A stretch of DNA of 61,435 nt, the filler included, from Hausera hauseri (taxonomy: Eukaryota), in the NCBI GenBank assembly GCA_046269625.1. It is 9 parts of 9 records of this genome, joined end to end, with 100 filler letters (N's around TTAATTAATTAA, not from the genome) between each part and the next. Parts side by side here need not be neighbours in the genome. Positions count along the whole stretch, not along the records: positions 5,122 to 14,626 come from JBJURY010353264.1; 8 more parts are not named here. One strand, 5' to 3'. The notes under the pieces are model-generated. The model was given only the letters and a program-made list of their open reading frames with translations. It was not told the DNA's origin and did not search any database. Made by a program: the position numbers and the translations under genes. This document shows positions 1 to 56,019 of the stretch, piece by piece. Numbering within the stretch: the first letter of the stretch is position 1; the number at the start of each line of letters is the position of its first letter.

Positions 1-38
1 TATCCACGATTAATATAACAGATTCAGCCGAGTCCACA

Positions 39-3000
39 TTGAAACACCCGAGTCCCTCATGGATCTCAATATTACTTTGGATACTCTCATTATTTATGTT
101 AAGTAAGATTTCTAGTAATGATGATGAGACGAATGGATCCTGGAATATAATACGTATCTCAACATTCAGTTGGAATGGACATTTCAATAAAAGAGAACCC
201 AAAACACTTAACGACTCAGGTTGCGTATCAAATGAATCCTCCGCAAATAATACAGAAACCCTACTGGAGTCTTATTACATTAACCAACCGACAGAAGAAT
301 ACTCAGACTATCGAGAATTAGCAGATACCCTAAAGGAAATCTGCAAAATACAACCAATATCAGATCAAGACCACCGCATGTACTCCTTATCAGAATTTAT
401 ACACGTCGTCCGTACTCTTGATTGGGACCGAAAAATGGTTAAACCGACGCGTGATAATGAAAATATTTACATCAGGAGAACATGGGCAACATTTGACTCT
501 TCCTTTTGCAGAGATGTAATGAGGCATAGACCCTTATTTATCGGAAGCCCATAAGAACGAGTGTTTCTTACTCATTTCTTAAGAGAAGAAATACCGTGAA
601 TCCCTAATATATATACTTACCCTATTGCAACAGACATCCCCATTATGCGATGTTTATATATCCCAAAAAAGAGCTGAGAAGGTGGGAGAATGATGCATCG
701 GATTATTCAAGAATTTCGGCGGAGATTTAATAAAAAAGAAAGTAAACAATTCATTTGCAGTTAATTGTTGGTTAACATATACGTTAATGACAATAAAGGA
801 CGATCTAGGAAAAGAAGAAATAGAGGAGATGGAAAAGGAAGAAACTCGGATACTATGGAATGATTATGTACGTAGAGATAGAGACACCATTTTAGCTAGT
901 AACGAAAACAAAGAAATTAGTTGACTGGAACAAGTAAGCACCAGAAGATTGTCCGACAATCTAAATGCTCTGCGTTACAGACTGCTATTTTATATGTTGG
1001 ATGACGACCAAGAGATAGCTGTACCTTTCAAAGGAGAAAGCGAAGATCTCATTTATAGTAAGACCATTTTGGAGCACTAAGACACCACACCCCAATATAT
1101 AGCTTCCACCATACTAAATAAGCCAAGACACTCAATAGATGATAAAAAATTGGTAGATGAAATACTGTACGATGTGACCAGACCGGATTCCACACGAAAA
1201 GTTTCATCGAACTTTTTATTTGACGGACAATCCTATGAGGAACAATACTACCAACAAGTAAAACTTGGTGATAATTATTCTAATTTAATACGAGTAGTGC
1301 GAGAATACCAAAAAGGAAAAGTACATCATGACTATTCCTCTCACAGAAAAAAGGATGTCATATCCAAACCAATTTAAAGGTCGGAAGACTAACGAGCTTG
1401 AATATTAACCCCTCTCAAGGAAACGAAAATATTCCTGTCCTAAAGAAATATTCCAGGAAGACTATACTAATACTGAAAATTGGAACGAATTATCTGAACC
1501 CATACAAGACGCCATGGACGAATTAAACAAGAACGGAAGCGAATATAAACCATGCAGAACCAGATGGCTACTTGCGTCAGACTTAATAGAAGCAACACAA
1601 GAGGACCTTAACATGACATCAATAACGACGACACCTAAAACTAACATAATTCTAGTCACTATTGCAAACGTAATAGATCCCGTAGGAGAATACAATTACG
1701 CGTTAGCCAGCCAGATAATTCCTTACTTCAGAACAGTAAATACTCTAAAAATAAAACCCAAGTAAACTCCCGTCAACCAGAGAGGAATTAAATCGAGTAA
1801 TGTATAGACTAGTATATCAATCGTTGTATCACTCTATTGTTAACTCATTAAAAATATGTCCCCAAGGCCAAGATCTTTTAACCACTATAAAAATCTACGC
1901 TTTATAGCAAATATAACCGAACAATGGTTAGACAATGTTGAATCAAAAGATGACCAATCTAGCAGTATACTTCATGACGGCCAATCCACTACTGTACTTC
2001 CTATATTTGGACAGACCCTTCATGAATGGGCCAGAGATTATAAATTGTTTATTGATTACAGGTAGCATAGATCAATTACCCAAAGAGGACCAAAAAGATT
2101 TCATGAAATTATATATGACCTTATATGAACCGTATTTTGATCGACTAAATCAGGAAACCGGAACAAACTTTAAAGAATCAGATTATAAATACCAATTACT
2201 TTTAATAGCTAGCATCTTATATACTTCTTAAAAAATTCCAGCCAATAAATCAATATCCTGCACGTTAAATGATTTTCAAACCAAAGTGTACTGTGAAGGA
2301 CTTTATTTACTTCAACAAATTTTAATGGAGATATCCTCATAACCTATATAGTTACAACCTATCAATATCATGATAGGGACCTAGAATGATATAGTGGGAA
2401 TACCATGCAATGAACCCATATGTACAAAACATGAATCATTGTTAAAATCCCGAATAGAAACACATTCTACATTACAGATAATACGTTATCTTTGGTCATT
2501 TGACCCATTAATAGAAAAGTACAGACTAACTCACGAAAAAATCATACTGTATGTAGATAAAACCAAATATCAATCTTTATTCGTCGGAAGCCGTAAAGAA
2601 CGTGTACTGATCTTTCGTTTCTTACGAGGAAAACCATTATTATTTACCATAGCGGACATTATTAGTCTTCTCCAAAGAATCTCACGGAATTAGTAGCAAA
2701 TAAACCTACGAAAAGAATTGCCAAATTGGCCGATATATGTCTAGGACTATTTAAGAGTTACGGCGAAGAGCTAACAGATAAAGTTCAAACGGATTTTTTT
2801 ATGATCAATTGTTGGATGACATACACACGAATGGCGATAAAAGATGATATTACTCAGGAAGAAATAGACGCCTATGAATAAGAAGCACGAATATTATGGA
2901 ATAATTATGTGAATCTGGATGTAAATACACCATTAATCCCGTTGGATTACGAAAATATAGATAAGTTCTACATGGTGAATTCAAGCGGATTTTCATGTAA

Positions 3001-5021
3001 GTTAGATGCCTTACGATACCATCTAATATTTTGTGAATTAAACGACAGCAAGGAAATAGCTAGACCATTTAAAAAGGAACGAGAAAGATTAATAAGTATC
3101 CGTCGACTAAGATCAGATAAAGAAAAGAAAGTGATAACAGATATGACAAAGAACTTACGACGACTAAATGCCTTCGAAAAATGTATCATGCGTATTTACT
3201 ATAATAGAGAATCATCCAAAATGGAAGAATATGAGGATACACCGCATAGCGACGATGATCACTATGAGATGAAAGGAAATATTAATATTAAATCACCAAC
3301 GGTAGTTGAGATACAACATAAAATATTTCAGTCCGACGTCAATAACGACCAAGCAGTGACCAGTGATAACGTCAACTCAAACAAACCCATGTCTATGAAA
3401 ATAATTAAACAAATAGCACAGAAAGAAATTACAGATCCCATTATTCATAAGGAAAATGACACCGACACCCAACCAGTATTAAGAGAAAACCAGTTTAGGA
3501 TAGTTAGTAACGGGTTCACCTTTTCAACATTAATATTACTTATTATTCCATTCATATTATTTGGAACGGCCGAGGCTACTTCTCCCACGGCAAATACTAC
3601 TCAGGAAATTTCATTAGTTTGGCTATTATTATTAATCTTAGTTAACTTAATGCTTCACATGAAAAAATCTGAACCATCAAGCAGAAACGAAAGGATTACT
3701 CCAACTGAAGGGCACACGATAATAGAAGAAGTTCCAACCATTAAACCAAAATATATGAAACGTCGAACACTAGCAAGAATGAAGGACATACCAATCACTA
3801 AACCTTTGTTATCCGATAATAATAACAAAAACGTCGACCCCACAAACGACTACTGCTGCTAGCAAATAGAGTCAAATAAATCCCTAAACCCCGTACCAAA
3901 CCCACTTCTATCACTATCTCAAGAAGTTGAACATTATAAAATAAAAAGGCTGCGAGAGTATAAGCGAGAAAACCAAATTTTTATCTAGAATTTTGATCAA
4001 ACAACAGAATGGTCAAATTTAGACGGCTCAGTACAATTAAACCTAGAAACTTATGCTAAAAATCATATGATGAATCGCCATTATATACAGTTAGGAGCAC
4101 AGAATGAAGATATTATCAAATATATAAAAGCGGAAATAAATTCATCATTCGGTATACTCTCAGAAGAAACGCAGATAATCATAGCCATAGTAGCTAACAG
4201 AGTATACTTAATAGCGGAACACCCCTATTTAACTGTTAGCAAAGTAGTCCCAACATTTCTTGATATAAATAAGCTCCGCAAAGATAGATATGAATTATCA
4301 CCTGAAGAGTATGAACTATATACCGTAGCCAACCGCTTGGCTCAGTGCCATTAGATAATAGAACCCCCACAACAGTACTAGAACAAAGCCCGTATAAACG
4401 GATAATGCTTAATGACCTCAGACAAGCATACGTAACTCACCTGGAATGGAAAAAGGAGATGAGACAATTCGACCTAGTCGGAAGAAATACACTATTAATG
4501 TACAAGAGCGGAATACAACTTTATCGAAAAAATAACGCAGACGTCTATCAAAGCATTCAATACGCGAATCGCTTATGGGAAACGCCTGATCATACCAGAA
4601 AAGAACTTATATCCTTCTATCTCGACATGTATAACAAATATTTCGAGCAATGTCAGAAGGAATCACGATATAATCCTAACACTCATCCCATGAGAGATAA
4701 TTTACTACTAATCACCAGCTTCCTACGACAACTTTCAAAGGTAGCACAGCATGAAGGTAGATCTTTTAGAGAACGCTACGAGAATGACCCAATAAACTGT
4801 AACTCAGGACTGAGAATATTTGACGAAATCATGAATGTGTCTGGCTTAAAGCTTTCATGGTATAACCACATGCATGAATTAGCCAAAGCTTGGAACTATA
4901 GATGTGGAATAAAATCCACCCACTTTGAAAATCGGAAACACGAGCTAATAATTATGCATAAATTACAACTATCAACTATACCACAACTAATAGAAAAAAT
5001 ACGATCAGTCGACTTACTAAA
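39..5021 (+). mobile_element. Decayed accessory (non-gag/pol) polyprotein region of a large Ty3/gypsy-like element, internally duplicated
   Basis: All long ORFs are on + and broken by stops/frameshifts. Peptides (PSWISILLWILSLFMLSK, EFIHVVRTLDW, PLFIGS, CIGLFKNFGG) match ORFs 3' of the integrase in contig 4 (SSWTSTLLLWVLSLLIMSK, ELIHYIHTVNW, PLFIGGMQER, CIGLFQNFGG). Confidence 0.6.
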
Positions 5022-5121: not shown

Positions 5122-6279
5122 GATTACCAACGGTTTCAATGATTTTCTTTGGAAATGTTTTTGAAGTTATCAAACAAACTAAATTATTCTGGCGATATCT
5201 CTTCTGAATACGATACAACGTAGCTATTCCACATGGAGGTTTTATAATTTTCTTTATTTCAAAAACAATTGCCATCTTTTAAATGATCCACAACCAAATT
5301 CTGAATGTCTCGTGAAATCATATTGCAACTGACTACTTCTAATGTGAAAATATTTATGCTATAAATTTCTGACAGCTCATTAAGTTTTCTACTGATTATT
5401 TGTTTGGCAGTTTGCCAAATTTCACTTCATATGAAAATATTCAAATTTTGATAAGCTATCAAAAGTAAGTTTCCACTCCGTAAACTTATTAACTTCGAAA
5501 TCGTACTTCACGTGCTTTAACACTGAACGATAATCAGTAAGCGACTAAAACCAACGTAATTGAATTCAACTGAAATCACACTCAATTCTGCATCCAAGTT
5601 GGTAATTTATAAAACTGTATTCGATATCCAACGGACTTGACTGATAATTATTCTGATTCGCTGACTCTTGAATTATTTTCTCTTTCGTGGTGGTAATTTA
5701 TTTTGTCTGATTATTGATTTCTCCCTTTGCTAACTAACACACTGTTTTTGGCTGGCTATAAGTCTATCTATATATATTCGTGGAGCAAGCACGTGTGTAA
5801 CGATTAATATTTTCTTGAATTAACTACGAATTGTTTTCGATTTTCAACAATTTCTAATAGCTTTATTTTCGTAATATTTTTCAAATATTAATATAAATTC
5901 AACACATGCTCCAAAAATTATTAAAGATGTGGCAAACCCTTCTGATTATTGTTGTCTAATTATTTCCAAGTTTTCTAATTCATACAATGACGTATAAGGC
6001 TAAGGTAACATACAATTCTACACGTTGACAATGAGTGTGTATAATTTTACAACATTTCGCCTCTAAGCGGCATCCTCGCATGTGCTTATTGCGTCAGGAA
6101 AGGTGACGCCCAATTGCTGTCGTCGCAGTAGGTCCAATCTACTCCGGAGACTACTGTCATCGACTGGATCAGCTTGGAACCCTATTTCATCTGCTTCTAA
6201 TGCATAACTGGTGCTGGGTTTGGTTTGAATTTGGACTAATCGGTTACACTCACCATTCGAGAAATATTTCAATCCGCTT

Positions 6280-6425
6280 GCCTGAACCCGACATATTTGG
6301 TACGTGGTTTTCCCGTTTTGTAGGCTTCATGTCTGTAAGCAAGTACGACAATACTTATGACGGCATTCCTTGTTATCCAATTTACGTATCCTTGCGAAAT
6401 GTTCTGTTTACAAACCGTGCAGATA
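6280..6425 (-). pseudogene. C3HC4 RING finger domain (frameshifted)
   Basis: Joining frames gives CTVCKQNISQGYVNxDNKECRHKYCRTCLQT*SLQNGKTTYQICR, i.e. C-x2-C...C-x-H-x2-C-x2-C...(C>Y)-x2-C. Confidence 0.75.
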
Positions 6426-7589
6426 TATTCGTCTTCGTTAGTGTTTTCTTCATCGAGGTCTATATTGGGAATAATTCTAATCCGTTCAAACACTAGACCA
6501 TCGTGGTCATGATATAGGTAACCATGAAGTTCCTTTTGTAGAATGTTAATCCAGCTCTTTCAGGGGTCATATTTTATCGGTACCAACGTCCGATCTATAA
6601 CGGTTTCTTTATCCAGATCGGGAACGTTGCCTTCCCTCTGGTATGCATGGTATTGCTTTTTCAACATTAACTTGATCTGGGCGTCCACAGGAATTGACAG
6701 TTTGCATGTTCTCTTTGATTTAAATACTGCAGCCAAGTATTATCCTATTTCCGTGTTTTCGCAAACGTATGCGCCATCCGGGGTATCGTATATTCCTTTG
6801 TTTTTCACATAAGATATTGCTTCTCTCTGTTTTTGGTGACTGCAGTACTATGCTGTAATCAATAACTGTGGGTAGTCTTTAGCTGTTGAATAATGGATAT
6901 TTACTTGAGATTTTTTTCTTAAGTACGTTCACTCCAGTGAATATCTGTGTAGAGTCATTTTCTGACTTTCTTCTTGGTGCTTGGGTTTGAACTTTTCTAT
7001 AGACCTTTTCTGACTGGGTTACGTCTATTTCGTTTGGTGGTTCTGTAATCCTAGTGTAAGTTTGCGAATTTCGCTCTATTACTTTCTTTTCCTTTTGGAT
7101 TTTTGCCTCCTTTGTTCGTAGTTTTGGAATTTGATTATCCTCGAGCGATTTTCTCTCTTACGGATTTTCTTGCCCCTTTGTCTTCTTCACGGTTTTTCTT
7201 TTTGTATAAGTAATTGTAGAGTGATAGTTTTCTCTTGTTTACGGATACTGCGGCTTCATCATTCTTTTCCTTGCAAATGCTGGACTTTTCCTCATGCTTT
7301 TTCAAAATTTCTTGTATCTTGAAGGTTGTTTGTGGTTCAGCAATCTTCGTTGAAGCCTTCGAGCCGAAGCTGTAACTCGTACTAGGTCTGTCGTCCGTTT
7401 TCAGTCGTAGAACGACTGGTTCTGTGTTGGATTCTTGTATGGTTATTCGATAATTTGCTCGTTCTTTAGACTCGATAGTTCTAGGAGGAGAATAGGGTCG
7501 GAATTATCGTCTATGTCTAGTACTCAGTTTTTCTGAGTTAGTGGGGCTTTTCAAATTCGTACTCGGGTTGTCTGAGGCCCATTCATGGT

Positions 7590-8114
7590 TCATTTTAATT
7601 CTGCATTTATGTCACGTAAATATTGGGAACATTGACTAACTGTTAATAAATGGCTCATTCTGACGTGCTTACCGCTCAATGATTCGAGAATTAACTTAAA
7701 TCGGCCTTCAACGGTCGGCAGTAGGTAACCATTTCTTTCCTTAAGGGTATGTTCCATTCGTTCTATTATTGTAGGATGGGTTTATATTTCTAGCATTCCT
7801 ACTATATGTGTGAGGGGCAACTTCAATTTTTCCACAATCTTTTCTACCTGATATCCCACAGGGATACATTGGTACAAACAGTGTGTCAATTCTTCGCGGA
7901 CCAGTTCGATATCCTTACCGTGGGCTAGCTGTTCTTTCTTTACTCCTGTTACTTCCGCGTAAGTTTCCCTTATCCTTTTTCTTGGACTGATTGTTTTTGA
8001 GTAAATTTCAACGTCCTCCGTTTTCCGAACGGATACTTCGACTGGAATATAGTTTCCATCATTTCCTCCATAATTCAATGCTACTATTCTGGTATTTCTT
8101 GCATCTTGTATCAA
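7590..8114 (-). pseudogene. DEDDh 3'-5' exonuclease-like domain (REX4/ISG20/DnaQ fold), acidic catalytic residues apparently lost
   Basis: RIVALNYG...IYSKTISPRKRIRETYAEVTGVKKEQLAHGKDIELVREELTHCLYQCIPVGYQV follows the DEDDh pattern VAlDcE...y...vkP...i...t.vtGI....l......v..el...l....lVGH. Confidence 0.55.
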
Positions 8115-8783
8115 ACTGAAGTTGTGTAGATGTCCGTATTAGTCCTTTTCAGTAGGTTCCTGTTTAAACTTTAAGGGTGGTAACTGAACAATGGGCGCGT
8201 TCTCATAAGTCACCTCAATCATCAACTTAACCGGTAATACACCACCTCGGAACTCTACTTCACAACTGTAGTGATAGAAATCTCTGCTGTTGATTAGAAA
8301 GGTGCTGTATTGGCATTGACTTCCTTGCCAGGAATCCCAAGCTTGATCCTTTAGTCGATAGTAAATTTCTTCATCTCCTAAATGAATAAATTTATTTTGA
8401 TGGTAGACGGGTTCGTATTGAAGTAATTGTCGCAAGGCATATGCTTTCGCATCTTTATCTTTACTCAGCGTATAAACGTACGACTCTGTTCTCTTCAGTG
8501 GTTCCTTTAAGATTATTAGAGATGACACTGGTCTGTTTGTATTCAACGAAAAATTTTCCTTGCAATTCATTATTGATCTGTCTGAATATCGACTTGGATT
8601 GGGAAATTAATACTGTCGCACACTTCTGTAGAAAATCGTCGATACTACGTCGCTCGTTATTGTGGTCATTTGAATACTTACCGGTCTGAAAAACAAATAG
8701 TAACGGTTAATCATAAAACAAAGTGTGGTTTTAAACCAAAATCAATTCTTTGTTTGATGATAGAATAACCCGATCTGTAATTG

Positions 8784-10082
8784 TCAGGTTACTTTATCAT
8801 AGAGATACTCTTGCGGTTCCAATTTCCTTAATTCCCGCTCTAAGATTTTAGCACGGTTATTAAGACACTTTTTGGTAACTAGTCGAAAAGTTGCTATGAA
8901 TATTACTAGCACAAACGTTGACAAACCTGTAATCATTATTATTGGAAAAACCGTGGGCTCTTTAGGTTTTATAGTGACAACTTCTACGGATTTGTCGTGT
9001 TCTGTGTCTTTACTCAAGTGTGGTTCTGCCTGAACTTCATCTAAGGTATGGAGTGTGAAGATTTGACTCTGTTTGTCTTTCGCGCTTATTTGTATTATGT
9101 ATTCTGGTTTCGATTTTAATGAGTTGCATTCAGTCTGATAAGTACTTTTCAACAAAGTACTTTTCGATGATTGTACATTGTACGACAAATTTATTTCGAC
9201 AGAAAACACTATTTTATGTTGCTGTGTCAAACACTTAACGGGAATTTTAGCTATTTTTCTCTCAGGCATTTTCACTTGAGTAGTTGGTTTGCTCGTCGTT
9301 ATTTCGACTACAATTTGTCAGATTTTATTTTTTGGATAATATCTTCCTAAATAGATGCTCGATTTATTTATTTGAGTTCCATAGAAGTCGAACTGAATTC
9401 TGTACTCGTAACCTTTCGGCATGCTACAAAATGGATTTGGTCTCGCGTTTCCAATGATACAATAATACGGAGATGGACTTGACCTATTTATTTTGATAAA
9501 TTGAACTGAAATCTCCTGGTTGCTTGGCAATCTTCTTTTTGTTTTTATCTGGATTCATTTGTCGTTCTCGTCTCTGGAGATCCCAATTATATTTTCGTCT
9601 AACACCCATTTGATCGAATCTGTCGATTGGACTATATCGCTGAAATCTGTTACACTAATTCGCTCTATGATGGGTATCACTAGTTTTAATGGTGGTCTTA
9701 TCGCTCCATGTGTGCATTCGTAGTTTTCATAGTACATCCGTATTGTGAATGTATATGTGTTTCCATAATTTATATTGCAACATCCTTCTTGATATCCGTA
9801 AGGAAGATCACAATGGGTCATTACCCGCTTGTTCACGTTCAAAAGAACTATTTGGTATTTTACTGGTTTCCTGGCAGACCTGTCTGTTCCGAATAGCACA
9901 CAGTTTCTTATTGGATCTGTATTCCGGGCCTTGAAGGCATCTAAAACACTTACGTCGTTTCTCTTCATGTCTAGCAACTCGCTTTTCATTCATTTGTTTA
10001 GTATTTGAATCATTCCTTTTTGAGCCTTCGCTTATGGGATATTCGAAGCTATTAATGATAATGCTAATACTATCTGCATGTA
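8784..10082 (-). pseudogene. Type I membrane protein-like ORF following integrase (signal peptide, ectodomain, C-terminal TM)
   Basis: YMQIVLALSLIASNIP*AKAQ signal-like segment at ~10080-10021; Cys-containing fragments 9555-9989 and 9318-9530; TM VFPIIMITGLSTFVLVIFIATFRLV followed by a basic tail. Confidence 0.55.
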
Positions 10083-10176
10083 AGATATGGGTTTGGCAGT
10101 TATGGACGAGGCTTTTGTTTTTCTATCATTTGGTTTCTGATTCACTTTTGCATCACTAAAAAGCAAATTTTATAGT

Positions 10177-11283
10177 TTATCCGGTTTCATTTCCGTTTTC
10201 ACGACTCTGCATCGATACGACCTCTTCATTTCCATTTTTATTAATATAAACTGTAGTGGGTGTCGTCCTGATAACTTCGTATAGTCCTCTTCCAGTACGC
10301 GTAAGTTTTAACCATGTACCCTTTTTGGCTACGGGATAGTGCGCATAAACCCAATTCCCGATTTCTAAATCATGCGGTTTCGCTTTTCTATCGTATTGCT
10401 TTTTAAATTCTTCTTCATATTCTAGGGATAATGTTTTCGCGAGTTCCCAACATTTTTGTAATCCAGTTTGTAGAACTTCTGCAAAATTTGGTTTTAAATC
10501 CTCGGGATTTGCTTCATACGGAATCATTTCTAAGTCCGTATGCAATGCTGCTTCTCGTCCATACATCATAAAGAATGGCGTAAAACTTTTCGCAGTATGT
10601 AGTGTCGTATTGATAGCGAATTGCGTACCTTCTAGGAATTCGTCCCAATCCTTCTGATCCTTTGCGACTACTGTTGATAATATTCGTATAAGGGTGGCGT
10701 TCATACATTCAACCATTCCATTACATTGAGGGTGGTAAGATGTCGTGGTTAATCTCTCAATTTTGAATATTTTGATAATTTTGACAAACAACTCACTAGT
10801 AAAGTTTCTTCCTCGGTCAGTTAGTATCTGTTCTGGCGGTACGTATCTACAGATCATTTTCCTCACTACTGCCTATGATAAAGTTTCTTCTTTTGATCGT
10901 GTAAAGCTACTAACTCTACGAAATGAGTTAAAGGATCAACGCGTGTTAATATATTTATTATTCTTGCGAGATGTAGGTAATGGTCCTACGATGTCCATAG
11001 ACATAGCTTGCATTGGTCTATCTGGTAAATTTATCGGTTTGAGTTGCGCTACGTAATTTCGTACTTTCCTTTCTTTAGTTGCGCATACTTCGCAAGCGCT
11101 TGCCCAATTTTTTACATCAATATAGATAATTGTCCAGTAGTATTTGTTTAGTATCCTTTCTAACGTCTTTTTCCAGGACATGTGTCCAGCTAAATACAAA
11201 TCATGTTCAACCATTAAAACTTCTGTTCGTAAATTCTTGCGTATAACTACTAATTTCCTTCCTTTCCAATCATAATACAACAC
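10177..11283 (-). pseudogene. pol: Ty3/gypsy integrase (HHCC Zn finger, rve core, degenerate GPY/F)
   Basis: EHDLYLAGHMS...CEVCA, MDIVGPLP, ILTDRGRNFTS, SYHPQCNGMVE, GRGLYEV. Confidence 0.95.
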
Positions 11284-11322: not shown

Positions 11323-13123
11323 TCAATGTCTTTGTAAGTGTTTCTTTAACTGGTGACCTTTGGGCATTTCGTCTGTTTCAGTATATTCAATAATTTGCTG
11401 GGTAACTTTATCTTTCTTTTGTTCGATTGAAATTTTGATCGCTTTATCTAACGTTAGGATACGCTGTTGATATACTAACTCTTCGAGTCGGTTTTTCTTC
11501 GTTGTCATATTAGTACTCGTTTTCGTCTTCAATTTTGATAATGAGTCAGCATCAATATGCATAGTACCAGGTTTATATTGAAATTCAATATTATATCTCG
11601 AAATTTCTTTGATCCATTTATTCAATCTGCATGTAAGGTTATTTGCTCGTCCTTTTAAAGTTGTAACTGCCTTGTGATCAGTAAAGATTATTATTTTCTA
11701 TCCATACTCATAGACGTTGAAGTATCTCAAGGCTTCTTTTACTGCTAACGTTTCTAATTCCATTACCAAATAATTTTTCTCACCTTTCTTTAAGTTGCGT
11801 TCTCCGTAAACGATCGGATGTTCCAATTCTTCATCCTCGCGTTTCTGTGCTAATTCATATCCAATACCTTCCTTACTTGCATGTGTTTTGATAATAAATG
11901 GCAATTTGAAATCAGGATATCTTAACACTAGTTCGCTGGTCAATATATTCTTCATTTTATCAAACACTTTTGTTCAACATCCGTCCTTTTCCATTTGATT
12001 CCTTGTTCAATAATCGGTATAATGACGCATTTATTTTCGAATTATCTGGTAAGTAATCAGCATAATATCCACATAGGCTTAACCAATGTCTTAATTCTTT
12101 TTGGTTGTGAGGTCCCATACAGGCCGAAATTTTGCTCAATAAGGATTTATCTAGTTTGGATCTTCCCTTTCCAACTATCTTCCTGAGGTATGATACGGCA
12201 TTCTGAGCCCACTTACATTTCTTTGCATTCAACTTTAACTCAGCTTGTTCTAATTTTATGAGTGTGTCTTCAATGTCTTTTAGATTCTCTTGTTCTGTTT
12301 TTGATGCGATCATTACGTCGTCTAAGTACGCAAATGCATGTTCAAACCCCATTAACATTTTATTCATCATGTTGATGAAAATAGCTAGTCCAGTGGTAAT
12401 TCCGAACGGCATAACTGTAATTTCATATACCCTATCGTGGGTGTTAGACGCTGTTTTATAACGATCCTCATCCTCAATCTCTACCTGCCAATATCCGGAT
12501 TGTAAGTCCAGAGTGGTAAACCATTTTGTTCCTGAGAGCCTATGTAGAGCCTCTTTTACAGATGGTAGGGGAAATGAATCTTTCATCATAAGAGTATTTA
12601 ATGCTCCGTAATTGATACAAAATCGATGTTTCATGGTACCTTTCTTTTTGACCATAAGAAAAGTTGAGTACCAAGATCTAAAACGTGGCCTAATTATATC
12701 GGCCTTAAGCATCCGTTCTACATCCTTAGTTATCTCAAATCTTAAGGAATGTTGTAGTGGATACCACTTTGGCATTTTCTGTTCCTCGAGATCTATTTCG
12801 TCATTGGAACCGGGCTTTTTCTTCAGTGGTATAGCTAGTCTTAATGCTTTTGCTCGACCAATGCCTTCTTCGTCCCTAGCAATAATTAATTTGTAGCGGC
12901 ATAGTAACTCATAAAATCGACAATAGACTTCTGGTGAGAATTTAGTGTGTACATGAAGTGCAAACTCGGCATATTTGTGTGGCTTCTTTTCAATAGTTAT
13001 CGCTGATACTTTGTAAGTGTGACTCAAGGTAGTGTTCGCGTATAACTTTACTGGCATTGGCGCGTTGTTCATTATTTTGACTGGTATTCGACCAGATGCT
13101 ACACAGATTAATATATTATTCAA
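11323..13123 (-). pseudogene. pol: Ty3/gypsy reverse transcriptase and RNase H
   Basis: RFCINYGALN, LDLQSGYWQV, VMPFG, AYLDDVMI; RNase H PFIIKTHASKEGIG, ELETLAV, YKPGTMHIDADSLS. Confidence 0.95.
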
Positions 13124-13324
13124 AATTATACATGGATTTAGTGTTTCTTTCGGCTCGAAATATACTGGTAAGTCGTCGACTTGACAGATTCATGCAAATA
13201 TTATCATTTCCGTTTTAGGCGGAATATTTTCGTCAACTGTGATCCATACTTCTCCGAGTTCTCTTTCCTTATTAATTGTTGCTCATTTTATCGGTCCAAG
13301 TTCAATTAGCTTCGAAGTGTTTAA

Positions 13325-13640
13325 GTCTACCGCAATATTTGGTAGACGTCTTAATACATCGCATCCTAATACTATATCATCCGTCAAGTGTTCAATTATA
13401 GAAAATTCATGTTGGAATCTCTGGCCCATTATCTCGATATTAGGATTCCATTTGAACCTCGGTCTCGATTCTTATCCGAAATCTCCTATGCTTCCGAGAT
13501 TGATTGCGAGAGGTGGCCTCAAATGAGTTCGTAACGATTTTGGTATTGATCCGTCTTTTATAAATGATTTTTCCTATCCGGTGTCTATTAACGCATATAC
13601 TTCCCAATCGTCAATACTATTTTTGGCGAACGGCCTACCT
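13325..13640 (-). pseudogene. Retropepsin aspartic protease
   Basis: GRPFAKNSIDDWEVYALIDTG*EKSFI ... DDIVLGCDVLRRL. Confidence 0.85.
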
Positions 13641-14289
13641 TCTTTAATCTTGGGCTGTTTAACGGCAGATATCTTGTGTCCATTAATACTGATTTCTGGT
13701 ATGCTGCTGGAGTCTTCGGCTATTTGTCTCAATTCATCTGCGGGGTATAATTCATTATTTACGCAGTTTTCATTATCATTTTCCTGCGTACTGATTAATG
13801 GTTCTCGGTTATTTGTGTATAAGGATATGCATTCGCGGATTATCCCAAATTTCTGATTTTGTTTCTATACCTCGTGGGATCCTTGGGAAGTATATCACCC
13901 TGTGGCCATCAACCGATCGATGACATAACTCTACCCTCTCTCTAATTCCATACATTTTCTGTAAAGCACCGTATTGCTTAGTCCCTTCATAAGGGTCTTC
14001 ATAACTGAAAGGTTTTCGATAGATTTCCAACCTGTAAGAGTTAACTGATCTTTTGTCGCAGTCCTCATACACTGGTGCCGTAGGGGGCAGTATAGGCAAA
14101 GGCGATTTTATGACCGAGTGTGCCTTATGCTTACATATTTTAGAGACCACGTCTCCTCCCTTAGACTCGTCGTTATCCGAATTGTTTTTTCGTGATTTTG
14201 CAACCCTTTGTCCTATAAAGAATATGGCTTTTCTCTTTCATTTCCGATTATAATTGCCGACATGTCTTTCGACATCGCTTTTCCATTTG

Positions 14290-14626
14290 GTCTCTTAATA
14301 CACTTTCAAGAATTTTCCGAAAGGAGTTATGATTGTTGTCAAAATTTTACACGAAAATCCAGTTAAGGTAAATATTTCGTAGCCGTTAATAACGGGCTGA
14401 ATTACTGCTTTGATTAGTTGTATCAAGAAATAGGTGGCTAGGAATACAGATGCTGCTTGTCAGAAAATTAAAAATCTTCCCCAGATTTTGTACAATACTT
14501 CCGTGGTAACTCTTTGATAATGATTAGCTACGAGTAAGGATTCCAATTTTGCTTGATAGCGAGTATCGTCTATTACTGTTGACATAGCTGTATTCAATTC
14601 ATGTGTATGCTGACGAGGAAAAGCTA
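14290..14626 (-). pseudogene. C-terminal membrane-proximal/TM region of a chuvirus-type envelope glycoprotein (truncated by contig end)
   Basis: AFPRQHTHELNTAMST...KIWGRFLIF*QAASVFLATYFLIQLIKAVIQPVINGYEIFTLTGFSCKIL resembles the recalled consensus FP...LNT...W..F..FG..sa.....i..liK..i...i.GY.l....G.S..ll of chuvirus-like G in retroelements; absent from the ORF track because of an internal stop. Confidence 0.6.
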
Positions 14627-14726
14627 NNNNNNNNNNNNNNNNNNNNNNNNNNNNNNNNNNNNNNNNNNNNTTAATTAATTAANNNNNNNNNNNNNNNNNN
14701 NNNNNNNNNNNNNNNNNNNNNNNNNN

Positions 14727-15690
<964 letters not shown>

Positions 15691-17814
15691 TTTCGATAAT
15701 TTACTCAGTAAATTGCTATCACATCTCTGTATGATATCCAATATTGGAATAATAATATTGGAAGAGTTCTTTTGGTAATGATGTGACAAATTCGCAGCAA
15801 CAATCATGAAGAAATTCTTGGTTATTTAAATTGAGACTCTTGTTTGAATGACTGACGTCCTTGTAAATGTCCTTGTAAACATGAACAACCAATTCCTGCA
15901 TGTTTTTACGACCATCTGACACCAATGAGGTTTTCTTGTTAAACCAGGGATTTTAAATAATTCCATCAAAAAGCACTATGAACACATAACAACAAGAATT
16001 GATTTATTTAATTATTTTTTTTATCAATTTCTTTAATTTTTTATTTACAAGGAATTTATTAATACAGCTTTACATAGCATAAACCCAAAAATAAATACTA
16101 TCAAAAGCAAGATGAGGATTTCAATATCGAGTGATATCACTGTTAGAAATTCTAGAATTATTTTCATTTTATTAATTATGTACAGTCATTTAAAAATCGA
16201 TCGACCAAGATCCTGATCACAAACAATTCTCGAAACACACCTTGTAGTAGATTTAATTGTAGAATCTTTAATGATATAATTTCGCTCCGTGATAAACTTT
16301 TCGTCTTCCAAATCTCCGAGTACAGTATCGTGGACCGCTAAAATCATATTTCAGGAATTTACTGTTTTACACATGACATTACTGTCAATCAGCATAGATA
16401 TAACGGCAGCTCGAACGTTAGCAAGAAAGATACGTATCCTAACCAATTAATAGTCATGAATAACTTGTATCAGAGTTTTAACACTAACAGAGTCAATAAA
16501 ACCACACGTTGAAAAATCAATGATTATATGTTTATATGATTTCCAGTTTGATATGATTATATGAGACTGCTAGAAGCGCGATCACGCTGAGAATACATTC
16601 TGTCCTCGTCAGTATTTTCCACGCTTGGCTTTAGTGATTGACAGTATAATTGGTTTTATCATCATTATGTACCAAATCGTCGGCGATTACGAAAACGAAT
16701 AACAAAATAGAAAACAATAACAGTGTATTTACATGTAAAATTCAAAGAAGCACGACCTCGTATATACCGCTGATGTTTTATCAGAATTATTAAAGAGCTC
16801 CTAATATGTCTGCAAACAGTATGGAATGGTATGTGCTGTAAACATTTGATAAGTGCTGGTCCTGTTCTTGGACAATTGATCGATCCATTCCTTTCATTAT
16901 CACAATTACGTTAACTATAGAAAAGGAAATTGAATTACAATTAAGAATTTTTATAACTCTAATGAAATTAATGTCAAATATGGAAGAATCTTTCAATTCC
17001 GAGGCACATTTCAAAAGTGATAGCATTGGAAATTTATCTAACTTTGCAATTTTACCAAATTTACCTTGGCAAGCCGGAAGAACAGCCGAAGATTTACGTG
17101 GTATTGCAGTAACATGCTTATGGAGTATTCTGGTTGAATACTGTAAATTGTCAAAAACTTTATTTCCGAAATCCGTTCGCTGATTTGTCATCATTTGTTT
17201 GGACGGTATCCAATCTGGTGGGATTTATAGACAATTCTATTCTATACTCGACGGTGAAACTGATACGATGGTGTGAGATTTGTTATTGTGTACCGTTCGT
17301 CTGGCAACCATTTTTTCTATTTCGCCTTTTATTAACGATTCCTATTTTTTGTTTTTCTCATATGTTTTTGTTCATAACGTCCACCGTTGACACACCATCG
17401 ACGCTTTTAAACATAGCCTTCAGTTGTGGTTGCCATTTCAGACCCATTTACTTCGATACTTCAAATACTTCAAAATGTTTACGGTTCCCCAATATTGACA
17501 ACTGTCCATTCACTTCGTGCAGGTTCGCTGACTTATCGTTCATTACCGAGGCCGTGTCCTTCACGTTGCAAATTAACATGCAAAGCGGTATAGCAATTGC
17601 TGAATACTTTGCTGCAACATTACAGCTCATCAGACTTGATTTAAAAGAATATGACGTAAAGACAGCAGGCCTTACGGCTATTCCTCACCTTATGAGAATA
17701 AGTATATGTATAACTAGATTTGACATTGTTCCGACCCCTAAACGTGATAGAAGTTATACCGATTCGTTGTCAATGATTCTCCACAGTACGCATAACGAAG
17801 CTGTTGAGTTCTGA

Positions 17815-23665: not shown

Positions 23666-25283
23666 GTTACTCCTACTTACATAGGAGTAAGTATATATAC
23701 TCCTACTAGAATACCTCCTATTAGTATATTATGTATATAATAACTAAATCGAATGCTGTATTGGATTTTTACGAGTGGATCAATTAATTTTTCCGCACCT
23801 GTAGCTTACATTTTAATGATAAATGTACGTCTAGTCAAAGTTTAATGTACGAGCCAAAATTAAATGACAAAATATTGCTTCAAAGATAACAAATTAATAA
23901 CAAGTTAGTTAAAAGCAAACTGATTTGATTGAAACCATTGCATGTGATGTCAAGTGTGCTCATTGTCTTGAATAAATAACCACGGTGAATCCGTGAAGCA
24001 TCATCATATTCACCTCATACTTTACCGCTGATTCTGATTGTTCAATAAAACGACAGGGTTCAGGTGACGCATCAAGCTGATTTTTGATATACTGGACATT
24101 GAAAGTGCTGGTTCAGAGGATAATTCATCAGACAAAGCTAAAGTCTTCCATCAATCAGGAGAGGTATACGAATGTACAAATCAGGTTTCATTGTGTCTGT
24201 GCTTACATGTATAGTGACATCAGTGGTGTTCTAGATTTACCGCTACAGCAATTGCATTTCGGTTACACTAGGAATCCAAAATTATCAGGTGCCTTATAGA
24301 TGTATTGCGATTTGATTCCCGCCCAAATTAACCAACCATTTTAATGATACACTTCCTCTATCATTTACCACATTACAAACAATAAAAACTCGTTCAATTT
24401 GTTTATTAAATTTGTCAGTATATCCCTTAATCTATAGTTCAACAAACAACATATTGAAATAAAATTGTGTGCATTTCAGCAACTAATTAAAGCATTTCGC
24501 TGAAATTAATTTTATTTCGGGAAAATTGGTACAACCTTTCATACTATAATTAAATTTACATTAAAAGTTACATATTTTACAGAAAACAGAATTCACCAAA
24601 TTTCTTAGTCTACGTGAAAAAACTCATTTTAGAAGTATATATTACATTGCCTAAAAGTTTGATTGCCGCTAAAAGAAACACTTAGATAAAACCTGTCTAC
24701 ACCANNNNNNNNNNNNNNNNNNNNNNNNNNNNNNNNNNNNNNNNNNNNTTAATTAATTAANNNNNNNNNNNNNNNNNNNNNNNNNNNNNNNNNNNNNNNN
24801 NNNNGAGAAGGTCATGACAAACATACACGCATTTTCTCTTCGACTTTGAGTAGCCTCTCGCATTTTTGTAACATTAACGTAGAACTGTCTATCCCACCCA
24901 AGCATCTAGTTGAAAAGAGTATTAAATATTAAGCGACATTTCTGGGTATTCGTAATACGCTAGCATCCAAAACTGGAAAAGTGATGCTTCTCTACGTTTC
25001 TGTTGAAGTTTTCAATCTGACTGAGGCTCTTCGTTTTACAGAAAGAGGTCAATTTTTTTGTTATTGTGAGGACACCTCCAGTCATACTCAGCGACATTTG
25101 TGAAGGTAGCACTGCTGCATGCTGTTTCGCAAGAGCTTTGTGGTGTTTTAAAACAAGTCCTCTCAAAATACACGAGCAAAATGGTGTTAAACTGCACGCC
25201 AAAAACAAGTGACTGCCGAAGGCAAACTATGCGAGGACATTAAAAACAGTTTATATGTCCTAAATAACAGAGGAATTGTTAAT

Positions 25284-25638
25284 GATTGATTGATTGATGG
25301 TCTTCCATCACCGCACGTTGGGTGAGCCCCGATAAGGGTTGTAGTCCTTAGGACTATGGAGTAGTGGCACTGAGCTTTCCTGTTGTAACGGTGATGTCTA
25401 GGAGGCTGGACCGAGGTCCTCAAGGCTTCCGTGCAATGCTTGGCCTGTTAGAAACGAACCACCTCACAACTGGGGACCATGTCCAACTTCCGCCAGTTAG
25501 CCAGCAGTTTTCCCTACCGTAGCCCGGGACGACGACAGGGACGTCTGGCAAAGGATCTTGGCCGACTATGGTTCGTCTGCCCTGGCACTGAGTATCAGGG
25601 TCGGCTATGGGTCGCCGTCCACAGAGCACCTCCGTCCC
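25284..25638 (-). mobile_element. Complete non-autonomous non-LTR retroelement (SIDE/SINE-like, probably RTE-derived) with 5' HDV-like ribozyme and (AATC)n tail
   Basis: GC-rich island; flanking direct repeats AGGAATTGTTAAT (25271-25283) and AGAAATTGTCAAT (25639-25651), 11/13 identical; AATCAATCAATC 3' tail. Confidence 0.85.
25492..25638 (-). ncRNA. HDV-like self-cleaving ribozyme with long J1/2 insertion
   Basis: Minus strand: P1 GGGACG(25638-33)/CGUCCC(25531-26); P2 GCCAG(25549-45)/CUGGC(25496-92); P3 ACG/CGU; L3 UCCCUGU; P1.1 CC/GG; P4 hairpin; J4/2 CUAA with catalytic C at 25500. Confidence 0.85.
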
Positions 25639-28285
25639 AGAAATTGTCAATAAAGCCATACACCCGGATGCAAAAAAGGACCATATTATTTATTGGGAGA
25701 AAAACAAAACCTCATTATTCATTTCAGTTTGAAATCAATTCACCGCCTCTTTGTTGCAACATCGCTATCTCTCTATACATCGCAAGGAAACAACAAAGAC
25801 CGTCTGGCAAGTATTTAAAGAAAAGTCTCATTGATTATAGCTGAATCGTAAAAATCTAAACCTATGATTTTACAATGATATTGATATCAAAATAATAATG
25901 TACCCAATGTGAGAACGGAACAAATTTAACAATAAACATAAGGCAGTAAACTACTCTTATAAGTTCTCTCAGTGATTTCCTCTATTTCTTCTCTTTTTAA
26001 TTCGTCCTTTATTGCCATCAGTGTATAAGTCAAACAAACAGTTGATTACAAATGCATTAGATGTTCTTTCATCTACCAGTTCTCCTCCGAAATTTTGAAA
26101 TAATCCGATACATTTTTCGCCCACTTCTTTAGCTTTTTCTTGAGTTACATATTTACCACATAATGGAGACGTTTGTTGCAATAAAGCAAGTGTATTATTA
26201 GTAGATATTTTTGGGATTTCTTTTCCGAAATAATGAATAAGGAAATTTCGTTCCTGCATACCGCCAATAAACAAAGGTTCGTATCTTGACAAATGGTTTG
26301 AGCATTTCAATATGGTCCACTGTTCCTCATTATCATTATCATCATAATCAACCGGTTAAGTGTACTTAATTTCCAATTAACAGTATGAATATAATGGATC
26401 AGTTCTATCGGAGTAAATGTTTGAGTAAATAACAACCTCAGCTCACATATTTCCCTCAAATCTTTTGCTAATTTATCATAATTTACGCAGTTGCATATTG
26501 ATTGATATTCATAAGGAAACTCCAAGGGTGATTTTTTTACATACTCGAATTGTTTTTGTATCAATGTATTAGTGAGTGTATAATCAGATATTATTTCCAT
26601 AACATCCGAAGCGACTTGATTTGGCGTATTGTCCATTTCTTCATCAACAGTATATGTTCCATCTTCTTCCTCATCATCGAGTGTGTCATTCAAGGAATTT
26701 GGGACTTTTATTAGTTTTTTTGCGTTTAGAGAAACGTTCGTTAGATTTGTCATCGTCGTTGCCAAAGAATTTACTCATTATCAACAACGAAAGTACCCAT
26801 AATAATAATGTTGAGGTCCATGAAGAATTAGGGTGATGAGATTTAGTCTTGACTGCTTCTGTTACAATGATCATGGAGAGAAAACATATTCCAATAAGGG
26901 ATAACGTTCCCAGTGAAAATGTGGAGTAACCCTTGATACCTGATGATTCGCGCTTTTTATCCTTTTCTTGAAGGTCTTGAATATGCATTGCTCTCGTTTC
27001 ATTAGCTATGTCGTCCATATATTTAATGCTATTTCCCGCAAATTGTAATCAATCTATCTTCATCCACTGTTCAGGAGGGAGATTACTATCTAAAGGCTGT
27101 CCCATTCTTCTGTTCCAGACTCGTTTAACCTCTTCTACCTCATTAATGAGTTCTCGACCTCCTTTGTTCATATTATGATGTTTAAAGATTTTTATTGCTC
27201 GACTAGCGGCTACATAATAGTGATGTTTTGATTTTCCTGGACTAGCTAAATCAGGAATCGTATAATATACTTCTTCGCAACTTATCTTCAAGAAAAATTT
27301 GTCCAGAGCGGTTAGTGTATTAAAATCTAATTTTAGGTACTCGCATATTAATTTTTTTATGGGTCTATACTGTTCATCCGTTATTCCGCACTTCTCGTGG
27401 TATTTACTACGGAAATCTCTTAATTCCGTTATACTGTTTATAGGTCTTTTGACTAATTGTTGTGCATGATTTATGCGTTCTGGTGTGGCTAACACAAAAT
27501 TCTCTAGCCGGTGTCGATTAGCGGCTTCTCTAGTTAACGGAAGTGGTGGTAGATTCCCCCTTTTCGTTGAGGCAATTCAAAATAATTTTGTTCAATTGGT
27601 TTAACTTCTTTACATTGCGCCTGCTTAGTAAGGTCTATTTTTCTTAGCTTCATATCGTTATACACTGGGAATTTGGGGCTCTCTTCCGGTTGATGTTTTT
27701 CAATTTCCTCTCTCAGTCGTTTAATATTTTCTTCAGCTTCTTCCAGCTTCTTACCTAAGACGATATAAATCACGGACGGCTGCATCTCGCTTGTGGTCTG
27801 CATTTCCATTAAGTCAGGATATATTGAAGTTGTTGATATAGGTCTTGATAGGTCTTGAAGCGAATTTCGTGGTAGTTTCTGTGGGACTCTTGCTATACTA
27901 TTTATCGAACAAGTGTCCATGTCGGTTATCAAAGGCAAGAGTACTTGTTTTCTTGCTTGATCATTCAGGGAGAAATTATTGGTTTCTTTATCATCAACTA
28001 TCATACGGCTGTTAAACATATAGTATGCTAATATCAACAGTAACATGACCGTACTGCTCCACGCATTTGTAGCAGTAGTCGTGCGCGTTGGTTGAGCATT
28101 TGCACATCCGAATAATATAAGCAGTATTAGCGTCAACAGGGTTATTGTAAACAATTTAAAGGGACTACCGAAAATTGTAGGTGGGGTATTAATTGCAGGT
28201 ATTTCCATTATTCGCGTTTGCGTTATTTTCCGTGCTAGTGTAGATTCCGTACTTTGTTCACTGATTTGCTATAATGTAGCATAAT

Positions 28286-29455
28286 TCAACGGGGGGGGAC
28301 AGCCTCTTCTCCTGGTGCGAACCACCATTGATCATTAGGTTGAGGCATGGTATCTTGGTAACCTTCGCAACTGAATATGATTGATCTTCCGATAACTTTC
28401 AGTTCTGCTCCCGTCAGTTTGTATAGTACATCTAAACCAATAATAAGATCAGAATACGACTCTTGTGGGTTGGCGTAACATGTAAAATCAATATACCCTA
28501 TGGTTAGATCCAATTTTCCGCATGCTTCGGGTATATAATATGTAATTCGTCTATATAATCGTAAACTTATACGAGTCAGCGGAGTAGTGGTATCAAGTTC
28601 CGCATTAACGTACTTACAGTACACCTTGACCAATATTGGTATCAACAAAGGATAATCATTATAATTCTGACGATAATGCATATTATATAATAACTCTAAC
28701 CTTTTTATCTCTTCCTCGAGCTCGTTCGCATTTTTTCCATATTTCTCCAAATCCTTCGTTTTTTCCAACGAATTTGTAGCTACGTCTATTACTATATCGT
28801 AATCTATTAGCGTATCTCTACCTATGCTACAAGGAATGTTGGAATTTTCTAGTATATGGTATAAAATCTTTGATCGCTTGTTTTTTAATTTGGTCAAGGC
28901 TGTAACTACGCCTATCACCTTTAGCTGATTGCCATTTATTAGTTTGTGGTTTATCTCACTACTTTCATTTAATTTTAGTTTTAAAATTTCTATTGTAGTC
29001 TTACTTAAGTAATTTTTTGCTGCTCCTGTATCTATTATTGCTTCAATTTTAACTTTATTTATAGTTATAGTTGTAGTTACCATATTATTTGATCCATCTT
29101 CTATAAACGCCATCATTGTATTTTTATCTTCCGATTGCATTCTGTTCCTTAGGGGATACCTACAAGGTGGTGTTCGTTTTTGTTCCGTATTCTCGTCCTC
29201 CAACTGCATTCTACTCCTTAATGGGTACTTGCAAGGTGGTGTTTGCTCCAGTTTGCGTTCTTTAGCTACTGGTCTACATCGTTGTACACTCATCCAAGAG
29301 GTTTTATTTGGATTAGACAAATTCTGCAATTCTACACTTGATTCAGTTATTTGTAATATCTTGTATGGTCCTTTGTATGGTAATTTCAATTTCGGGCTTT
29401 CGCCGTGTTTACAAGTCTCATCTAGTATATTAACCAAGTCTCCGATTTGGTACAC
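28286..29455 (-). CDS. Integrase C-terminal (GPY/F) region fused to two retropepsin-like domains
   Basis: 389-aa open frame with YKGPY, a duplicated PPCxYPLRxRMQxEDxNT, a DTGA protease and a second DTT protease-like domain. Confidence 0.7.
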   Translation of the reverse strand: MYQIGDLVNILDETCKHGESPKLKLPYKGPYKILQITESSVELQNLSNPNKTSWMSVQRCRPVAKERKLEQTPPCKYPLRSRMQLEDENTEQKRTPPCRYPLRNRMQSEDKNTMMAFIEDGSNNMVTTTITINKVKIEAIIDTGAAKNYLSKTTIEILKLKLNESSEINHKLINGNQLKVIGVVTALTKLKNKRSKILYHILENSNIPCSIGRDTLIDYDIVIDVATNSLEKTKDLEKYGKNANELEEEIKRLELLYNMHYRQNYNDYPLLIPILVKVYCKYVNAELDTTTPLTRISLRLYRRITYYIPEACGKLDLTIGYIDFTCYANPQESYSDLIIGLDVLYKLTGAELKVIGRSIIFSCEGYQDTMPQPNDQWWFAPGEEAVPPR

Positions 29456-29479
29456 ATGGGGTTTTGTCTTCTTGTCGTA

Positions 29480-30127
29480 CTAATCTTTGTAGTTTTCTTG
29501 TTGATATTTAATTTTTAATCCTGCTCTGATCCATGCTTCTTGTAATATTTCCTGTAGAACTGTTGCATAATCCAGTTCCTCCATCAGCTGTGACTGTGGT
29601 TGTTTATATTCAAGGTCAATTGACATAATATCTCCTCTGCCATACAATAAAAAGAAGGGTGATTCTCCAATTGTCGTATGAAGACTTTGTCGGTAAGCAT
29701 ATACACAAGGTTTTATGTATAGATCCCAATCAGCTGGGTGATCATATGCGTAACTGGATCTCATAATTGAAAATTGTTTATTAAAAGCTTCTACCGCGCC
29801 GCTGGCTTGTGGATGGTAGGGCGATATAAATTTATGATTAACTCCTAGTATTGCCAATACTTTTTCCATAAGTTTGGTGCAAAAATTACTTCCTCTACGC
29901 GATATCATTGTCATTTGTACTCCATATTTGAATATTATGTCGTCTACCAATCTCCTGGCCATAACATCCGTGGTTTGGTTTACCATTGGCATCGCTATTG
30001 GAAATTTTGAGTGGTAGTCAATAGCTGTAAGTACACATGTATTTCCTCTAGCGATGGTTTGTAATGGTCCAACTATATCAATGCTTATACAAACGAATGG
30101 TGATGCTAAAACTGGTACTGGTTTCAA
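29480..30127 (-). pseudogene. pol: Ty3/gypsy integrase catalytic core
   Basis: ISIDIVGPL, AIDYHSKF, ISRRGSNF (catalytic D mutated), PYHPQASGAVEAFN. Confidence 0.92.
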
Positions 30128-30339
30128 TGGTGTTTTTCTTGCTTGGAAATTTCCTCTTCTTTNNNNNNNNNNNNNNNNNNNNNNNNNNNNNNNNNNNNNN
30201 NNNNNNTTAATTAATTAANNNNNNNNNNNNNNNNNNNNNNNNNNNNNNNNNNNNNNNNNNNNCGTTTTGATACACGTTTCTTGCCGCCGGACACCTGTTT
30301 GGTAGGGTTACGTTTAACAATCGTTTTCAGAAAATTCTT

Positions 30340-56010: not shown

Positions 56011-56019
56011 AAGTACGCG

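Follow-up and report, generated by a model that had tools for sequence, protein, structure and literature searches.

Origin of the fusion glycoprotein fragment

Does a fragment of a viral fusion glycoprotein that lies next to a Ty3/gypsy pol gene in the genome of Hausera hauseri belong to that retroelement, and what would an envelope gene (env) placed ahead of pol mean for the lineage? The locus is found in a stretch of 61,435 nucleotides (the window), which consists of nine contigs joined end to end through spacers of N, TTAATTAATTAA and N. The element sits at the end of the contig at 5122-14626 and is cut at 14626, so most of the glycoprotein (G) and everything upstream of it, gag included, fall outside the sequence. 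As gag, the long terminal repeats (LTRs) and most of env are beyond the contig end, the full structure is deduced only from relatives that are 23-41% identical. A second copy of 5122-7600, a possible LTR, was not found within the window. The element is a decayed copy with many stops and frameshifts, unable to make the protein (table 1).

The peptide quoted in an earlier note on this DNA is encoded as described, in the minus-strand frame starting at 14624, and a profile match agrees with its reading as a viral glycoprotein. Residues 23-108 align with positions 516-601 of the 653 in the Pfam family Monjiviricetes_fusion (PF24664; E = 5.1e-13, 48.3 bits with a cut-off of 27), a match that covers solely the stem or membrane-proximal region and the anchor. 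The fragment comprises the membrane-proximal region, the transmembrane anchor (approximately 14456-14400) and a second hydrophobic stretch, with one internal stop. Stops in the G frame occur at 14462-14460, 14297-14295 and 14240-14238, and the frame is open again from 14237 to 13812, a stretch containing a PTAP motif. A word-seeded search with the G fragment retrieved none of 37 candidates, and the peptide comprising G and the linker gave nothing meaningful against PDB sequences. The C-terminal PF24664 match, together with full-length PF24664 matches in relatives, places this env in the gB/chuvirus-like class III type. The earlier label "chuvirus-type" holds only at the level of this broad family and not as a closer identity, since the nearest relatives with readable context are retroelement envelopes of the Schmidtea type.

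Table 1. Features of the env-bearing element and the adjoining spacer, in window coordinates.
Feature	Position	Strand	Basis and remarks
Assembly spacer (N44, TTAATTAATTAA, N44)	14627..14726	.	Contig end, non-biological
C-terminal ~110 codons of Monjiviricetes/gB-type fusion glycoprotein (env)	14298..14624	-	PF24664, alignment with 12 relatives, hydropathy
Linker between env anchor and protease, predicted to be cytoplasmic	13640..14297	-	Two stops, frame break near 13.8 kb; mostly tiled by diverged contigs
PTAP tetrapeptide in linker, candidate late domain	14073..14084	-	Not conserved in relatives
Retropepsin protease, DTG at 13585, in-frame stops	13343..13639	-	RVP E = 2.1e-4
Segment between protease and reverse transcriptase, colinear with relatives	13010..13273	-	BLASTP alignment with P0048 and P0052 is unbroken across it
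Reverse transcriptase (YLDD at 12328) and connection	11960..12652	-	RVT_1 E = 2.4e-25, tree
RNase H, frame differs from reverse transcriptase (frame break)	11593..11970	-	RT_RNaseH E = 2.7e-25
Integrase: H2C2 zinc finger, core, C-terminal part	10200..11241	-	Integrase_H2C2 E = 1.3e-14, rve E = 2.4e-7
Predicted second membrane protein, type I-like, four stops	8787..10090	-	Layout, weak profile matches
Accessory ORF remnant, weak DnaQ/DEDD exonuclease likeness	7590..8138	-	PDB 2p1j E = 0.061; diverged contigs cover region
Further co-oriented ORF remnants of no recognised kind	6063..7589	-	No LTR identified

Gene order and relatives

Pfam matches on the minus strand give the order G C-terminal end, linker with PTAP, protease (PR), reverse transcriptase (RT), RNase H (RH) and integrase (IN). 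The PR-RT-RH-IN order of pol is of the Ty3/gypsy (Metaviridae) type, and env stands directly upstream on the same strand, with about 0.9 kb between its anchor and the protease DTG, which falls just outside the interval 13640..14626 delimited by the earlier note. The distance from the G anchor to YxDD is approximately 719 codons, compared with 540-1859 in six relatives. The single frame change that had been noticed between the linker ORF and the protease is indeed there, near 13.8 kb; further stops and frame breaks run throughout pol, and the integrase region has stops and apparent internal frame breaks.

Searched by phmmer, 1.84 billion proteins gave 17 matches to the G-linker peptide, 15 of them with PF24664; the other two (P0136 and P0138) are WD40 proteins and were rejected as spurious. 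A retropepsin lies downstream in the same ORF in nine of the 15, and five of the remaining six are fragments of 113-183 amino acids. The complete series G-PR-RT-RH-IN is found within one ORF in P0048, P0052, P0077, P0125, P0141 and P0143, and seven relatives have a stop-free passage from G into RT. A search with PR-RT among long proteins recovered at least three with PF24664 among the 120 listed of its 673 matches, each with G upstream of the protease. The Pfam order and these single-ORF relatives bear out the proposal of an env located before pol in a Ty3/gypsy element. The proposal that env-PR-RT-RH-INT formed the entire polyprotein is not upheld, as P0143, P0131 and P0077 begin with gag, with zinc-knuckle or capsid matches preceding G.

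The RT leads to the same proteins. Among 122 RT-bearing proteins the five best RT scores are those of P0126, P0125, P0062, P0041 and P0143, all of this lineage, and in a 70-row tree the window RT is sister to a nine-row group holding these five (SH-aLRT 86), and in this tree joins the lineage. The tree derives from a quick search, with a long window branch (2.66), support below 95 and a sampling that excluded named Burro and errantivirus RTs, a BEL/copia outgroup and 53 of the 122 RT-bearing rows, mostly Cordylochernes predictions; P0057 yielded no RT row. All tree neighbours carry gypsy-type domain sets, and the window RT nests among them. G and RT each retrieve P0125, P0126 and P0143, and thus point independently to one lineage.

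Other features of the relatives recall planarian elements. The env of P0048, P0052, P0129, P0131, P0134, P0135 and P0141 contains the motif YQES, which in the published env table occurs in four Schmidtea rows and in no other row (PMC13524379); by motif, the relatives' env resembles the Schmidtea C1a rows. A Bcl-2-like domain was recognised in P0129 (E = 9.6e-4) and ankyrin in P0062 and P0141. By hydropathy, the relatives have hydrophobic segments on either side of G and again behind the integrase. Among P0141, P0131, P0134, P0129 and P0062 there are several tandem protease-like domains (up to six stretches in P0141), C2H2 fingers, ankyrin repeats and a Bcl-2-like domain immediately before env. 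The 2627-aa P0125 is a gag-env-pol-membrane polyprotein of an animal-type retroelement, yet its NCBI entry calls it hypothetical and assigns it to a Flavobacteriaceae metagenome-assembled genome (MAG), a bacterial label likely due to bin contamination.

In our reading, to which we assign a probability of roughly 85%, the locus is a decayed multi-copy Ty3/gypsy element with a class III-type env before PR-RT-RH-IN, likely encoding one Gag-Env-Pol polyprotein of the Burro/GYPSM1 kind.

The PTAP motif in the linker

PTAP, PPxY and YPxL are late domains, and the earlier note took the PTAP of the linker as what links env to pol. Put most strongly, the motif would be a conserved, functional TSG101-binding late domain coupling the Env tail and Pol to budding. 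By composition P[TS]AP is rare: of 20000 shuffled linkers, 30 contain it. The PTAP also lies on the predicted cytoplasmic side. Moreover, PPxY or YPx(1-3)[LI] occurs in the tails of five of the 12 relatives where 1.0 is expected, a count obtained with a YP pattern broadened post hoc and on rows that include near-duplicates and are not independent. Against a conserved role, P[TS]AP is absent between anchor and protease in all 12 relatives, and some late-domain-like motif arises in 2199 of 20000 linker shuffles. A conserved late domain thus described seems to us possible, though on balance doubtful. PTAP as the defining link between env and pol is not supported, while the relatives' linkers are somewhat enriched in other late-domain-like motifs. 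That the Env tail carried some signal for budding is plausible.

A probable second membrane protein behind the integrase

The region that follows the integrase has the layout of a type I-like membrane protein: a hydrophobic leader (at approximately 10085), a cysteine-bearing beta-rich region, a transmembrane helix (8951-8883) and a short tail. The predicted ectodomain extends over about 380 codons and includes cysteines and three N-glycosylation sequons. Among 89 fetched proteins with an integrase motif, seven continue past it for more than 400 residues and show a strong hydrophobic segment there; each of these falls in the RT group of the window. Common to them is a repeat, selected with a pattern picked by eye, that has two cysteines and a stretch resembling L-x-P-x-T-x-Y. 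In a leave-one-out comparison the repeat profile beats all 200 shuffles in five of six relatives and fails for P0062, where 148 of 200 shuffles score as high. An AlphaFold model of the post-integrase domain of P0048, built on a six-row alignment, is a beta-sandwich (pLDDT 70, pTM 0.61) for which the top PDB rows in Foldseek are fibronectin-III domains (best E = 6.5e-4). The VIA search of the same model agrees (IL-22R1, Z 8.3, rmsd 4.4, 93 aligned residues), with the proviso that a common fold may by itself give a Z of about 8.

The window itself is less easily read. The hhalign comparison of its post-integrase protein with the relatives' domain gave a probability of 0.4%, and its single-sequence fold (pLDDT 36.8) was unusable. 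Scans of the post-integrase domains against Pfam and PDB sequences returned no FN3 match; a homologue search with the post-integrase region of P0143 found just its own cluster mate among 8000 scored, and the ESM Atlas gave no usable match to P0041 1225-1585. The ORFs between 10.1 and 6.0 kb could be viewed as unrelated host or repeat sequence rather than a second envelope protein. They have no Pfam, PDB-sequence or significant profile match, their frame differs from that of the integrase in this copy, and the depth beyond 10.2 kb is far below that of pol in most bins. Yet, as in the seven relatives, a leader, an ectodomain and an anchor follow directly behind the integrase in the same orientation, and diverged contigs cover the region. 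Furthermore, when the relatives' repeat profile was run over six frames of the 61 kb, the top two matches (9081-9167 and 9729-9830) both landed here, although they are not significant (5 of 500 shuffles as high). We judge the view of an unrelated neighbour unlikely. By its layout the window copy likely also carries a second membrane protein behind the integrase, which likely contains fibronectin-III-like repeats, the fold itself being predicted for the domain of P0048 and not for the window.

A post-integrase protein of this kind is undescribed in the text of PMC13524379 and in the portions of PMC6431247 and PMC5408684 that were available; their figures, Repbase, Grohme 2018 and Sacco 2022 may mention it. 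Further downstream, the ORF remnant at 7590..8138, for which there is no Pfam match, is probably part of the element, and the remnants at 6063..7589 are probably its 3' accessory region.

Diverged copies in a sequencing run

A search for sequencing runs with DNA of the element gave one run (X1), maybe the source of the window itself, and listed no RNA run. Positions 13300-14626 align with 1042 contigs of X1, 941 of which are less than 95% alike. Diverged contigs (about 82-89% alike) span 13433-13920, 13996-14391 and 14206-14626, the last extending 389 bases beyond the contig end; among the matches listed (eight pieces, with 1047 more) no diverged contig bridges 13920-13996. More than 93% of the aligned depth differs from this copy at every one of the three stops in the G frame, and likewise at one stop in the protease; at the frame break near 13.8 kb four contigs do (depth 20.8 of 30). 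The stops and the frame break are therefore likely lesions of this copy.

These data bear on whether env and pol were instead separate ORFs joined by programmed frameshifting or read-through, the break at 13.8 kb being regulatory and not a sign of decay. Frameshifting ahead of pol is common in LTR elements, and the window does show a frame change between linker and protease. Additionally, P0135, a locus record ending with G, stops before RT, although it could equally be a broken copy. The variation among contigs at the break speaks against a regulatory site, as do the relatives that read from G into RT without a stop and the comparable breaks inside pol of this copy, where recoding is not expected. 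Programmed recoding is in our view very unlikely.

The weakest alternative, that G is a separate chuvirus-like endogenous viral element (EVE) or part of an Anakin-like BEL/Pao element beside gypsy pol by chance, draws on the stops and frame break separating G from PR here and on Jingchuvirales glycoprotein EVEs, which often have gypsy fragments at their flanks in the absence of true capture (PMC10084718, in part), but is extremely improbable given that the best G relatives are G-protease fusions, that G and RT indicate the same three proteins, that other copies cover the G-PR junction, and that no BEL/Pao-type domain was matched. The earlier note had left room for a G fragment belonging to a separate nested element; diverged copies tile most of the G-PR junction, mostly without breaks, and the assignment of G to the gypsy element is confirmed at the level of sequence comparison.

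Other elements in the window

Decayed mobile elements are abundant across the window, which has the appearance of unplaced repeat contigs from an animal genome. The 3' part of a second Burro-like element lies at 24805-30162 on the minus strand, with an integrase at 30160-29483, then, in colinearity with P0052 and P0062, an aspartic protease (Pfam E = 7.6e-7, at approximately 29.1-28.7 kb), and ORFs with hydrophobic segments after it. Extra post-integrase proteases are likewise present in P0048, P0062 and P0141. Plus-strand ORF remnants with hydrophobic segments at 1-5021 gave no informative Pfam match and include two stretches of approximately 70% nucleotide identity to the 24805-30162 contig; they likely correspond to a related element's accessory region.

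A fragment of a protein-primed family B DNA polymerase was found at 40430-41785 on the minus strand (DNA_pol_B_2, E = 3e-16), and further family B polymerase fragments were recognised by eye at 34.5-36.3 and 50.6-51.0 kb; these probably derive from DNA elements of the Polinton kind or related ones. An ordinary gag-pol gypsy family, with no env visible, has several decayed copies, at 18.5-22.6, 45.3-46.3, 51.4-54.5 and 57.0-61.3 kb. The RT at 58601, the sole one of this family placed in the tree, is far from that of the env-first element. Finally, broken fragments of protein-kinase and kelch/BACK host-type genes lie on the minus strand at 14913-15700 and 55575-56938.

Comparison with described elements

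The giant planarian element Burro/GYPSM1 has an env with mononegavirus fusion glycoprotein matches, in frame between gag and pol, and was called the first such case, with decayed copies noted in another planarian (Arkhipova and Yushenova 2019, PMC6431247, in part). Its planarian hosts are Dugesiidae; for the window a flatworm host would be plausible from the env type. Gypsy elements of GAG-ENV-POL order with a gB/chuvirus-like env are reported from flatworms, nematodes and bryozoans (PMC13524379), Sacco 2022 being cited for the nematode elements (PMC13524379, in part). Both the order and the glycoprotein type are thus already published for gypsy elements, and the novelty that the earlier note saw in the order does not stand. 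Its premise that chuvirus-like G capture is mainly a matter of BEL/Pao elements agrees with an earlier arthropod survey that found no clear gypsy capture (PMC10084718, in part), a survey since superseded. The Chuviridae-like glycoprotein of mosquito BEL/Pao elements also adjoins gypsy pol genes (PMC13524379, in part).

Burro/GYPSM1 resembles the present element in its mononegavirus-type Env in frame between gag and pol, its accessory ORFs and its decayed copies with stops and frameshifts, and Bcl-2-like and ankyrin domains are found both in Burro and in relatives of the window element (PMC6431247, in part). The internal region of Burro/GYPSM1 reaches 25 kb, with Bcl-2, BIR, MATH and ankyrin domains, whereas the window contig, which is cut, measures 9.5 kb. 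A dUTPase-like domain is reported between PR and RT in Burro; the window has a colinear segment at that place, which gave no Pfam or PDB-sequence match. The Burro env is in frame with pol; in the window the frame is broken, although most of the related depth is without breaks and six relatives are intact. The available text on Burro/GYPSM1, its figure falling outside this scope, names no post-integrase membrane or fibronectin-III domain (PMC6431247, in part).

The GAG-ENV-POL errantiviruses (Chary and Hayashi, eLife, PMC13524379) likewise combine a Ty3/gypsy pol with a gB/chuvirus-like env upstream. Those of Schmidtea are present in up to 215 intact copies (PMC13524379), whereas the window copy is dead. 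The cysteine-bridge class of errantiviruses rests on env domains I-II, which the window fragment lacks. The main text of that study makes no mention of fibronectin, FN3, a late domain or ESCRT. Anakin, a BEL/Pao element of mosquitoes (Dezordi 2020), is another case of an LTR retrotransposon capturing a glycoprotein of the same broad family (PMC7642597, PMC12440569 and PMC13524379, in part), but with a BEL/Pao pol, in contrast to the Ty3/gypsy pol of the window (RVT_1, RT_RNaseH and Integrase_H2C2, with no match to a BEL-type family). Gypsy-like LTR elements of bdelloid rotifers (Rodriguez 2017) have a dUTPase between PR and RT and, after pol, either small transmembrane ORFs or a DEDD exonuclease. 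A separate ORF 3' of pol encodes their env, which is of the paramyxovirus F type, whereas the env of the window precedes pol, and the likeness of the window remnant to the DEDD exonuclease is weak (PMC5408684, in part). Troyka was set aside as a comparison because it is without env. The window element is a dead and rather diverged member of the described group of Burro-like, GAG-ENV-POL gypsy elements, and being one more decayed member its env-first feature matters little by itself.

Proposed particle assembly and cell entry

How might such a polyprotein have worked in the intact lineage? We propose that it would be made on the endoplasmic reticulum, with Gag kept in the cytosol, an internal signal sequence directing Env into the lumen and the Env anchor bringing the chain back to the cytosol. 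Signal peptidase would part Gag from Env, and for this reason Pol would reach particles via the Env tail: hanging on that tail instead of on Gag, it would be packaged by the tether until the protease frees the enzymes. A second internal signal after the integrase would send the fibronectin-III-like ectodomain to the lumen, ending in a second anchor, and particles would bud carrying the fusogen and a second surface protein. PTAP may have aided ESCRT recruitment from the Env tail, though it is not fixed in the lineage. Topology, processing and packaging of the polyprotein are inferred here; the hydrophobic segments of the relatives would fit the topology. A once-infectious status of the lineage, as suggested in the earlier note, is plausible but putative.

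Taken further, Burro-like GAG-ENV-POL elements might be two-glycoprotein retroviruses, with a gB-like fusogen before Pol and an FN3-fold type I protein after the integrase as attachment or trigger partner or host-receptor mimic, and with Pol packaged tethered between the two membrane proteins, not fused to Gag. We advance this idea only tentatively and would sooner expect part of it to be wrong. The second membrane protein, located on the particle or on the host cell, could mediate attachment, partner the fusogen or mimic a receptor. How gB-bearing errantiviruses enter cells has no explanation so far, given that the gB of herpesviruses requires partner glycoproteins (PMC13524379). A second membrane protein, encoded in the same polyprotein throughout the lineage and predicted to fold as fibronectin III, would be a candidate partner for the gB-like fusogen.
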